Virus record (IMG/VR): IMGVR_UViG_2675903289_000016
Length of the DNA: 4,481 nucleotides
Reading direction: 5' to 3' (one strand)
From: a virus
Taxonomy: Duplodnaviria > Heunggongvirae > Uroviricota > Caudoviricetes
Made by a program: the position numbers and the translations under genes. The notes under the pieces were generated by a model. That model worked only from the letters and a program-made list of their open reading frames with translations, had not been told where the DNA came from and did not search any database. Positions 1 through 2,102 of this stretch are shown here, piece after piece. The stretch's first letter is position 1. Every line of letters begins with the position of its first letter.

Positions 1-11
1 CTACTGTCCAT
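1..11 (-). CDS. Probable start of a further minus-strand gene running off the window (only M-D-S visible)
   Basis: On the minus strand, AAGGAG (plus 19-24) lies 7 nt upstream of the ATG at 11..9, in a different frame from ORF 1-198. Same initiation-region pattern as gam (AATAAGGAGAAAGATAATGG vs AATAAGGAAAAACAAAATGG). Confidence 0.3.
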
Positions 12-198
12 TATCTTTCTCCTTATTCAGTCTTCTGCGGCATTCGGCACAGTCATCAGGGCTTTCAAATGTATCCGGCTCGCGATTATGAGCCAGATAT
101 AACCACCGCCCACATATACTGATATTTTCACCTGTTTTAAAAAAATGATGCTTCTTAGCCATCAATGGCCGCGCCCATCCAGCGGGTAGACTATTCAT
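1..198 (-). CDS. Small Cys/His-containing hypothetical protein (65 aa)
   Basis: ATG at 196-198 with a GGAGGA RBS 8 nt upstream, lying inside the 3' end of the preceding gene; stop TAG at 1-3. Has C29, C50, C53 and H17/H18/H37 (HH…C…H…CxxC-like spacing). Confidence 0.5.
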   Translation of the reverse strand: MNSLPAGWARPLMAKKHHFFKTGENISICGRWLYLAHNREPDTFESPDDCAECRRRLNKEKDNGQ

Positions 199-565
199 TA
201 GCTTTATCCTCCATGCTGGACAGAATCATATGTATTAATGTCGGGCGTGGAGATATACGCATTTCATTAAGCGTCTGAAGGGCAGCAACAGCAGCCATTT
301 TATCGGTGCCTCTGGCAATTTCTGCAAGAGAATGCACAATCCATAACGGACTTAACGCTACGGCTGAATCCAGAATCATGTCATCCATAATAATTTCTGG
401 CACATCCCGTTTGTCACATTCTTTATCCATAAAAGAAACGATTTTTTCCGCATCTTCCGGTTTCATACCTCCGGCGATAAGAATTTTACGATATTCATAA
501 GACGTTCTTAATTCAATGCTCATATTCATCTCCTGTAACTCTGACAAGGACGTGATTTTTCTCAT
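191..565 (-). CDS. Hypothetical protein (124 aa; alternative start gives 110 aa)
   Basis: ATG at 563-565 is coupled to the upstream stop. An internal ATG at 521-523 has a stronger AGGAG RBS 6 nt upstream. Stop TAG at 191-193. About 40% GC by hand count. No HTH or catalytic motif recognised. Confidence 0.5.
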   Translation of the reverse strand: MRKITSLSELQEMNMSIELRTSYEYRKILIAGGMKPEDAEKIVSFMDKECDKRDVPEIIMDDMILDSAVALSPLWIVHSLAEIARGTDKMAAVAALQTLNEMRISPRPTLIHMILSSMEDKANE

Positions 566-756
566 TTACGCCTNTTACGCCTCCCGGAAATACGAATGTA
601 TATACCGATGAGAAAATCCATAATAAACAGGAAGAGCGACATCCTGATAAAGAACCAAATGTCAGGCATAATGGACAGGTTTCCTGTAATCGCAAATATA
701 AAACCAGTCCCCCACACTGGAACGATAATTGCGAAAAATACAAGTCTCTTTATCAT
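562..756 (-). CDS. Small membrane protein (64 aa), two predicted transmembrane helices and a polybasic C-terminal tail
   Basis: ATG at 754-756 with a GGGAG RBS. Two hydrophobic stretches (LVFFAIIVPVWGTGFIFAI and IWFFIRMSLFLFIMDFLIGIYI) followed by GRR(K/N)RRK. The ambiguous base at 574 falls in this tail. Stop TGA at 562-564 overlaps the next ATG. Confidence 0.5.
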   Translation of the reverse strand: MIKRLVFFAIIVPVWGTGFIFAITGNLSIMPDIWFFIRMSLFLFIMDFLIGIYIRISGRRXRRK

Positions 757-1304
757 GGCGTTAACTCCCGTAATACAGCGTCCTCGGCGGTCCGTCGACG
801 GTAATAAACAGCGTGAGCAGAATGTTCAGATATGCCAAACTTTTCGCCAATTTCCCGGAATGACAGACGGCGAGGGTAATCGGAATCCCGTAGTGCACGT
901 ATAAGACGAACATCCTCATCAGATATACGTGTGCCGGGGCGTAACTCACCGCACTTTGTTAATCCGGCACCAATCATTCCTGCGCGGCACCTGACAGAGT
1001 CTTTATTACGTCCGAGATAATCCCCCATTTGCTGGCAGGTCATTGTCCGGGCATTTTTTCGGATAAATTTATCTTCATCAGGTGTAAATCGCGGTCGTTT
1101 ATATTTCAGCAACTCCGGGTATGTACTGCGCAATACGCCAGTCCGGTTATATACGGCCCAGACACTTCTTTTTATTCTGGCGGCAATATCCTTAACCGGG
1201 GTGGAGGAATAAAGCGCAATCAGCAGCGCATCTTCTTCAGGTGTCCACGGGCGGACATGAGCAGGTGCACGACCTTTTCGCCCCATGGGTTGTAATTTCA
1301 TCAT
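753..1304 (-). CDS. Putative DNA-binding regulator (183 aa) with three HTH-like repeats; C-terminal repeat resembles the Mor/C activator HTH
   Basis: Starts ATG ATG (1302-1304, 1299-1301) after GGGGGTGA. Three repeats begin WTPEEDALLIALY, FTPDEDKFIRKNA and ISDEDVRLIRALR. The last continues RRLSFREIGEKFGISEHSAHAVYYRRR, which matches the Mu Mor pattern LIRDLR…SELTTRYGVTFNTVYKAIRRMRR as I recall it. Stop TGA at 753-755 overlaps the next ATG. Confidence 0.55.
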   Translation of the reverse strand: MMKLQPMGRKGRAPAHVRPWTPEEDALLIALYSSTPVKDIAARIKRSVWAVYNRTGVLRSTYPELLKYKRPRFTPDEDKFIRKNARTMTCQQMGDYLGRNKDSVRCRAGMIGAGLTKCGELRPGTRISDEDVRLIRALRDSDYPRRLSFREIGEKFGISEHSAHAVYYRRRTAEDAVLRELTP

Positions 1305-1307
1305 GCA

Positions 1308-1823
1308 TCACCCCCTGACTCGCTTTTCAGCAGCATAAAACTCATCAGACAGAATTTCGGTCATTTTCTGTTTTGCGGGTTTTACGCCACACTCAAGGTA
1401 AATCACATCGTCAACGCAGAACCACTTCACAGGGCCAAACAGGATTGCCGAGAAATCAATGCCCAGCCAGAACAACAGGGCATCGGTCCTAGCATACGTG
1501 ACGGGCGAATATTCACGCCACAGACTGTTAAGTTCGTCAGAGGCAGCGCGCAGGGCTTTGGGAATACGAGATGTGCGCGGCGTGCAGCTCCAGCCATTCG
1601 ACGCAGTTGGTTTTCGCCATAAGTCGCGATGAAAAGGATATTTGTCATCCGTAAAACGCAGCCCCTTAAAACAAAAACCACTGATACTGAATTCAAATAC
1701 CGACCGGCACTCAACATTCAGCACGGCCTCAAGGCGTTTTGCCTCATCCTTAACTTTCTGGCAGTCCTGCTGGTATTTTTGCCACGCAGCCAGCGCGGAA
1801 GGGTTTGATGTTTTAAAGAACAT
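1308..1823 (-). CDS. Hypothetical protein (171 aa); sits where GemA lies relative to Mor in Mu, but the sequence is not recognised
   Basis: ATG at 1821-1823 with a strong GGAGGTG RBS 5 nt upstream; stop TGA at 1308-1310, 3 nt before the next start. About 55% GC. Confidence 0.6.
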   Translation of the reverse strand: MFFKTSNPSALAAWQKYQQDCQKVKDEAKRLEAVLNVECRSVFEFSISGFCFKGLRFTDDKYPFHRDLWRKPTASNGWSCTPRTSRIPKALRAASDELNSLWREYSPVTYARTDALLFWLGIDFSAILFGPVKWFCVDDVIYLECGVKPAKQKMTEILSDEFYAAEKRVRG

Positions 1824-2102
1824 TACGCCACCTCCGCAGATATCCCGGCAGGCGCTGCTGTCCGGTCAACAATCAGGTAGCGCAGAACATGTTCAGTGAT
1901 ATTCCAGCCGCTTAAACCGCAGATAATGACGCCCAGGCGTATGTCGATATACGCCATCACAAACTGGGGCACGCCTTCTTTCATGGCCTGCTCATCAACT
2001 TCAGCCACCACATAAACGGTTTCACAGGTCAGAACGCCCTGAGCAAATTCCCACGCCATCGACGGAATATCATGCCCCTCAATCCATGGCAGGGATTTTC
2101 TG
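1823..2102 (-). CDS. 3' part of a hypothetical protein whose 5' end lies inside the N gap
   Basis: The called ORF starts at the ATG at 2057-2059, but the same frame stays open upstream (…EKSLPWIEGHDIPS-MAWEF…) right up to the N boundary at 2102. Stop TAA at 1823-1825 overlaps the next gene's ATG (TAATG). Confidence 0.5.

Follow-up and report, generated by a model that had tools for sequence, protein, structure and literature searches.

Protein D5 of phage T5 is described in the T5 record as a DNA-binding protein needed for DNA replication and for late transcription, with a part in shutoff. The title of a 1979 paper on D5 (cited in PMC12630848) names DNA binding and a role in replication and late transcription, and a 2026 preprint reported that D5 is a helix-turn-helix (HTH) protein that is mildly toxic alone and triggers retron-Kva2 by binding its multicopy single-stranded DNA (msDNA). 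D5 has lately attracted attention for triggering a retron; how it acts in late transcription and replication is poorly understood. In the passages available from a paper on DRT4, ORF55, described as a protector of single-stranded DNA 3' ends, is not linked to D5. Here we examined a 183-amino-acid (183-aa) protein encoded in IMG/VR virus record IMGVR_UViG_2675903289_000016 (Caudoviricetes); the whole stretch of DNA that was analysed, 4,481 nucleotides (nt) long, is called the window. This protein already has a generic RefSeq annotation (WP_000977064.1, ‘SANT/Myb-like DNA-binding domain-containing protein’) and a grouping in PHROGs; it is an uncharacterised member of the D5-like and Myb-like phage proteins of tandem HTH units. 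We considered it fairly probable that the protein is an early, three-HTH binder of duplex DNA, related to D5, that modulates phage or host transcription and/or replication. DNA binding itself was judged very likely; a specific role as a temporal regulator, argued by analogy, is tentative.

An earlier note, made from the letters alone, had placed a 183-aa open reading frame (ORF) at 753–1304 without giving its strand. We confirmed this ORF, which lies on the minus strand; the plus-strand translation of 753–1304 is riddled with stops. The coding sequence and the parts of its product are as follows.

753–1304, minus strand: coding sequence of the 183-aa triple-HTH protein, an ATG-to-stop ORF with its stop codon at 753–755.
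1251–1304, minus strand: N-terminal arm (residues 1–18), conserved and predicted to be disordered, consensus M-x-L-x-P-M-G-x-P-G-x-C-P-A-H-V-R.
1122–1250, minus strand: unit 1 (U1, residues 19–61), a Myb/SANT-like three-helix HTH with an invariant W20.
969–1091, minus strand: unit 2 (U2, residues 72–112), a second Myb-like HTH.
930–968, minus strand: U2–U3 linker (residues 113–125), consensus S-L-x-K-C-G-D-x-x-P-x-T, with K117 and G119 invariant in the family alignment A2 (see below).
792–929, minus strand: unit 3 (U3, residues 126–171), a generic HTH of the sigma-region-4/GcrA/Tc3 type with an invariant D129.
756–791, minus strand: C-terminal helix and tail (residues 172–183), consensus T-A-x-D-A-x-x-R-E-L-L-P, conserved in A2.

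The protein had been described as three HTH-like repeats, and all of the motifs quoted for that description are present: WTPEEDALLIALY (residues 20–32), FTPDEDKFIRKNA (residues 73–85) and ISDEDVRLIRALR (residues 127–139) at the starts of the units, followed by RIKRSVWAVYNR (residues 43–54), GRNKDSVRCR (residues 98–107) and GISEHSAHAVYYRRR (residues 157–171). Unit profiles were cut from a 28-sequence family alignment, A2 (U1 14–66, U2 67–119, U3 120–176), and compared with hhalign. Results showed a probability of 98.9% for U1 against U2 (E = 4e-17, score 72), 93% for U2 against U3 (E = 3e-7, score 33) and 88% for U1 against U3 (E = 3e-6, score 29), and column-shuffled controls never scored above 15. 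The ranking of the unit pairs was unchanged in A1, an alignment of lesser depth, for which the controls were 100 shuffles and reversals. AlphaFold2 modelled the protein with a predicted local distance difference test (pLDDT) score of 80.8 and a predicted template modelling (pTM) score of 0.48. The predicted helices were at residues 22–32, 37–44 and 48–61 in U1, at 75–83, 90–97 and 101–110 in U2, and at 129–140, 149–156 and 160–169 in U3, followed by a C-terminal helix at 173–181. Structure prediction, which had been proposed earlier as a check, returned three HTH units of three helices each and no non-DNA-binding fold. The claim of three repeats was borne out both by these HTH bundles and by the unit comparisons, which scored above their shuffled controls.

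The codons for the TPEED, TPDED and ISDED motifs recur at an exact spacing of 159 nt (53 codons), at 912, 1071 and 1230. However, the DNA match between unit starts spans only 15 nt and protein identity between units is ~20%. On these grounds we rejected a recent in-situ duplication, and the duplication of the units is ancient. U3 is clearly the most diverged unit: five residues are inserted after its helix 1, and its likeness to U1 is confined to the 20-column HTH core. Overall, U1 and U2 make a close Myb-like pair, to which U3 adds a more distant HTH unit. The N-terminal arm, with pLDDT below 50 for residues 1–15, is conserved in both A1 and A2 (mean column entropy 1.68), and the U2–U3 linker has an entropy of 1.69, which is below most helices, at pLDDT 69–73. 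The entropy of the C-terminal helix and tail was 1.52, and a helix was also predicted there in a separate model of U3 (58–66 of that model). Across the family, U3 helices 1–2, the U2–U3 linker and the C-terminal tail are the most conserved elements, whereas the third (recognition) helices are the most variable (entropy 2.35–2.74).

The PHROGs profile phrog_323, ‘transcriptional regulator, D5-like’, matched residues 2–182 of the 183-aa protein at E = 2.5e-53, over profile positions 80–256 of 319. T5 D5 (T5.118, YP_006946.1, 255 aa) was matched by this profile too, at 1.2e-71, and for three other relatives the values lay between 1e-23 and 8e-37. In hhalign, the A2 family profile matched T5 D5 at 97.3% and a 25-sequence D5 family alignment (A4) at 97.5% (E = 7e-12), the latter over 168 colinear columns that took in all three units. 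In D5, three units follow an N-terminal extension of ~70 aa, and its alignment with the 183-aa family begins at D5 residue 60–71. The two proteins are alike in their PHROG, in their three colinear HTH units and in being encoded by early-expressed phage genes. As judged from sequence, D5 is the closest CHARACTERISED relative, and the 183-aa protein is a distant, N-terminally shorter relative of D5.

Taken singly, U1 and U2 are Myb/SANT-like and U3 is a generic HTH of the sigma-region-4/GcrA/Tc3 type. Pfam Myb_DNA-binding scored 23.6 bits on the 183-aa protein against a cutoff of 24.4, and it was matched in 24 of the 28 relatives at E ≤ 0.1 (best 1e-7). Precomputed PF00249 matches were present in several relatives, Sigma70_r4 was matched in 23 of the 28, and phrog_14101 (‘transcriptional regulator’) matched residues 74–108, in U2. 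The Pfam scan that the earlier note had suggested returned matches of the Myb and HTH types, though sub-threshold, and none to Mor. A scan of NCBIfam gave nothing useful for the 183-aa protein, and phmmer against PDB sequences gave only matches with E > 0.3. The U3 profile found generic HTH proteins only among PDB sequences, and many sigma region 4 domains and GcrA were among the best structural matches to the U3 model. The top matches of the whole model in a Foldseek search of the PDB were Cbp1 (2lvs), the Tc3 bipartite domain (1u78) and SNAPc, with a best E of 0.058; this search was uninformative because the three units are flexibly linked. In a viral structure library, many uncharacterised tandem-HTH phage proteins matched the whole model.

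The likeness to Myb/SANT repeats (PF00249/PF13921, e.g. c-Myb R2R3) lies in U1 and U2, which keep the pattern W-T-x-E-E-D ... I-A-x-x-L-G-R-T ... R-x-x-x-L and form tandem three-helix bundles with an HTH, ~53 residues apart. In the Myb consensus, three regularly spaced tryptophans or other aromatics form the core. In contrast, only the first signature tryptophan (W20) is kept in A2, the second and third being aliphatic or variable. The 183-aa protein also differs in its shorter helix 1–helix 2 segment, in the third, non-Myb HTH that follows the pair, and in its bacterial and phage setting. Cbp1 of Sulfolobus, the Tc3 transposase bipartite domain and the SNAPc Myb repeats resemble it in having several HTH units per chain and an extended asymmetric site, but their similarity is weak (E 0.06–0.24); they are analogous, not demonstrably homologous, and have other biological roles. 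The resemblance of U3 to the GcrA DNA-binding domain, sigma-70 region 4 and the LuxR-GerE HTH is at the level of the fold only, and the 183-aa protein lacks sigma region 2, the GcrA sigma-interacting domain and a receiver domain.

The genes of the window form a string of co-oriented minus-strand genes. Positions 600–2075 match the E. coli DLI.5a chromosome at 100% identity, and the entire window aligns with that locus at 99.6–100%, a masked run of Ns excepted. The DLI.5a copy sits in a Mu-like prophage inserted in bglJ, in the order repressor, ner-like, MuA, MuB, small ORFs, Kil, small ORFs, Gam, gp11, gp12-like, the 183-aa gene, four small ORFs, gp16/GemA, a 140-aa Mor-family protein and lysozyme. 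In Mu, early transcription starts at Pe and extends through the semi-essential region. The 183-aa gene is part of the early lytic operon, because it is tightly packed with its neighbours and a promoter and terminator scan of the window gave no signal above chance.

A word-indexed search found relatives in E. coli and Salmonella down to 41% identity, under the names SANT/Myb, AsnC family and winged helix, and full-length homologs ranged from 97% down to 31% identity. An exhaustive HMMER search returned 9816 proteins at E ≤ 1e-3. These included ~25 full-length representatives of roughly 180 aa, and hundreds of proteins of 300–1300 aa (P0023, P0026, P0029 and others) with 4–10 tandem Myb/HTH units. 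One of the long proteins, P0023, has seven Myb/HTH units fused to an SF2 helicase and resembles the ‘replication origin binding’ protein T5.108, which is annotated with SANT and helicase domains (L067). A locus search of species-representative genomes, based on A1, found no related loci. The region at window positions 600–2075 was found in 232 of 5426 complete E. coli genomes (~4%). The 183-aa gene is accessory because canonical Mu lacks it: tblastn gave no match there, and the gene after gp12 in Mu is the 60-aa gp13. Among Mu-like viral contigs at 58% identity or more, the gene slot is conserved. The 21 loci at 36–48% identity are P2-like, with the gene 0.5–2.2 kb upstream of the replication gene gpA and with int and C-repressor matches in all but one; the annotated Citrobacter phage Shae_phiSM has the same layout. 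In both Mu-like and P2-like prophages, the relatives lie within early lytic operons.

The 183-aa gene was more diverged than the genes around it. In three Mu-like loci (L021, L025 and L038) its identity was 73–75%, versus 84–100% for the other mapped genes, and in some P2-like loci it was 56–58%, versus 90–99% for the neighbours. The ratio of nonsynonymous to synonymous substitution rates (dN/dS) was 0.23–0.28, with a raised dS of 0.52–0.75. We rejected positive selection as the cause of the high divergence on these values, which argue for purifying selection on an old allele that recombination has moved. In mycobacteriophages (H9–H18), the U1–U2 pair alone matched stretches under genes annotated as HNH endonuclease or DNA methylase. 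In Vibrio phages (H6–H8, H17, H19), most matches covered U2–U3 alone, and that of H19 covered residues 36–140. The HTH units appear to travel as separable modules.

Expression of the 183-aa gene would begin only once the repressor is lifted, because the gene sits in the early lytic operon, between gp12 and the gp16/GemA–Mor genes. We infer that a single polypeptide, probably monomeric, would then set its three recognition helices in successive major grooves of duplex DNA; its calculated pI is 10.1, with a strong net positive charge. The resulting footprint would be long and asymmetric, as with Myb R2R3, the Tc3 bipartite domain and Cbp1. Occupancy of the DNA may adjust phage or host transcription and/or the timing of replication in early lytic growth, comparable to what is annotated for D5 in T5.

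A number of points weigh against this proposal. The variability of the recognition helices fits diversified and weak specificity alike, and no target site could be proposed. The relative placement of the three units in the model is not confidently predicted (pTM 0.48), and the AlphaFold2 input alignments were shallow, with 11 sequences for the whole protein and 25 for U3. Identity to D5 is ~25%, much of it at generic HTH positions. D5 has a pI of 6.3 (acidic to neutral) versus 10.1, and its extra N-terminal region of ~70 aa, not clearly an HTH, is missing from the 183-aa protein, whereas the N-terminal arm, KCGD linker and RELLP tail of the 183-aa family are without counterpart in D5. Moreover, D5 is essential in the virulent phage T5, whereas the 183-aa gene is accessory and dispensable for the Mu and P2 lifestyles, and the function of D5 may not transfer. 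Literature searches on Myb-like proteins of Mu-like prophages and on the accession found no experiment on the protein or its close relatives.

Two database families offer other identities. Mor and C are dimers with a single HTH and an N-terminal dimerisation domain, and the earlier note had likened U3 to the C-terminal HTH of Mu Mor, raising the prospect of a Mor/C-family activator of middle or late genes with a triplicated HTH, acting on a Mor-type promoter. Mor/C (PF08765) are likewise small phage-encoded HTH regulators of Mu-type phages; the search of viral folds listed, as its 18th match, a BFVD entry named ‘Mor transcription activator’ (E = 1.5e-3, template modelling score ~0.3); and the DLI.5a prophage has one annotated Mor/C-family gene versus two in Mu, so a second activator could come from elsewhere. 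The register of the proposed alignment, with U3 over Mu Mor 78–112, was right, but its score of 15.1 (probability 1%) was at the level of the controls, and the U3 profile gave hhalign probabilities of 1% with Mu Mor, 1.8% with Mu C and 0.15% with the prophage's own Mor-family protein. Pfam Mor had no match in the 183-aa protein at E ≤ 1 and was not among the top 25 of the 73 Pfam families matched across the 28 relatives. BLASTP of the 183-aa protein against the prophage's Mor-family protein found nothing, and PDB searches with the U3 profile and the U3 model returned no Mor and no structural match to the solved Mor (1RR7). The Mor slot is already filled by a separate Mor-family gene, 1.6 kb downstream in the same prophage, and Mor/C proteins have ~130–140 aa and one HTH, whereas the 183-aa protein has three HTH units and no other domain. 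We rejected Mor/C membership on five lines (Pfam, BLASTP, U3 against PDB sequences, U3 structure search and hhalign); a Mor/C activator is very improbable, and the resemblance of U3 to Mor is generic HTH similarity. The other option in the earlier note, a different kind of regulator, is supported, and its interpretation as a whole is partly so. Some relatives are named ‘AsnC family protein’ by NCBI, and Pfam HTH_AsnC-type scored 19.7 bits on residues 131–164, which would point to a feast/famine regulator of the AsnC/Lrp family. However, the curated cutoff is 27, no ligand-binding RAM domain was found in scans of the 183-aa protein or among the top families of the 28 relatives, and the rest of the protein consists of two further HTH units. 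We rejected this identity, which has next to no probability; the name reflects a generic HTH match.

The three units could instead be a protein-binding module, in which SANT-like and sigma-region-4-like units dock on RNA polymerase, sigma or a host protein as an appropriator or anti-sigma-like takeover factor. Protein contacts are known for both SANT domains and sigma-region-4-like folds, the structural matches to U3 include sigma region 4 domains and the sigma-70-binding GcrA, and the disordered, conserved N-terminal arm and the C-terminal LLP tail resemble interaction peptides. Such docking is unlikely given the strong net positive charge, with basic residues in and before each third helix, the DNA-binding nature of D5, and the W-T-x-E-E-D ... 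G-R-T ... R ... L signature of DNA-binding Myb repeats that U1 and U2 retain. The reported binding of retron-Kva2 msDNA by T5 D5 raises a further alternative, in which the protein counters or contacts defence systems in a phage–host arms race by binding structured DNA such as retron msDNA, or other nucleic acids of those systems. The 183-aa gene is the most diverged in its neighbourhood in both the Mu-like and the P2-like comparisons, and it borders a replaced accessory segment. Nevertheless, its dN/dS and dS point to an old recombined allele and not to positive selection, PADLOC had no match for the 183-aa protein or three neighbours, and the sensing of a phage protein by a retron does not amount to a function of that protein; we regard this role too as improbable. 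A more far-reaching and rather doubtful idea is that the D5-like branch of temperate phages is a distinct mobile early-gene cassette, whose single-chain array of three HTH units would read allele-specific long sites or structured defence DNA and thereby either reprogram transcription of the host or the phage or interact with defences of the retron type. Its own arm, KCGD linker and RELLP tail would be its marks, and diverged alleles would be swapped between Mu-like and P2-like prophages. If true, the branch would be more than a set of D5 homologs and would stand as a new class of factors for phage takeover or for the interface with host defence.

We favour the reading of an early, D5-related binder of duplex DNA. 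The comparisons correct the name ‘AsnC family protein’ and the Mor-like guess, and they connect the T5 D5 family with an uncharacterised prophage gene whose surrounding region is carried by ~4% of complete E. coli genomes. A small, non-essential relative from temperate phages would be an easier system for studying triple-HTH DNA reading and D5-type function; otherwise the gene is an ordinary accessory DNA-binding gene.

Two features flank the 183-aa gene.

1311–1316, minus strand: Shine-Dalgarno-like AGGGGG, 6 nt ahead of the ATG, read from the sequence.
753–756, minus strand: ATGA overlap of the 183-aa gene stop with the start of the next ORF, seen in the sequence, the ORF list and the DLI.5a annotation.

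A small membrane ORF (562–756, minus) lies directly downstream and shares the ATGA, and this overlap suggests translational coupling of the two genes within the early operon. Upstream, the gp12-like gene stops at 1308–1310, leaving a gap of 3 nt. This 171-aa gene (1308–1823, minus) matched only phrog_2314 (unknown function), with no match in Pfam, NCBIfam or PADLOC, and RefSeq calls some copies ‘Mu-Gp12 family protein’. An Rfam scan of the window found no match. The four small minus-strand ORFs between the 183-aa gene and gp16 (window 1–756) are replaced by unrelated sequence in L021, L025 and L038, where the genes flanking the replaced segment are 85–98% identical; by this comparison, the segment bordering the 183-aa gene is a hypervariable accessory segment.

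The DLI.5a prophage (L001, ~1040–20300), which splits bglJ, appears defective. Beyond the lysis genes it retains just one truncated tail gene, a gene for tail-fibre assembly, an invertase gene with a frameshift, and com/mom; there are no head genes and most tail genes are missing. Its one 140-aa Mor-family gene (L001, 10126–10548, minus) lies directly before the lysozyme gene. In phage Mu (L066), for comparison, Mor is followed by gp18–20 and then C, whereas the DLI.5a prophage would have one activator for its middle-to-late cascade. In the window, a single N at 574 falls within a stretch of 9 nt by which the small membrane ORF exceeds its DLI.5a counterpart. The masked run of 492 Ns at 2103–2594 stands for 393 nt of the DLI.5a prophage and is 99 nt longer than the sequence it replaces, which in DLI.5a comprises the gp11 5' half, the spacer between Gam and gp11, and a few bases immediately beyond the stop codon of Gam.
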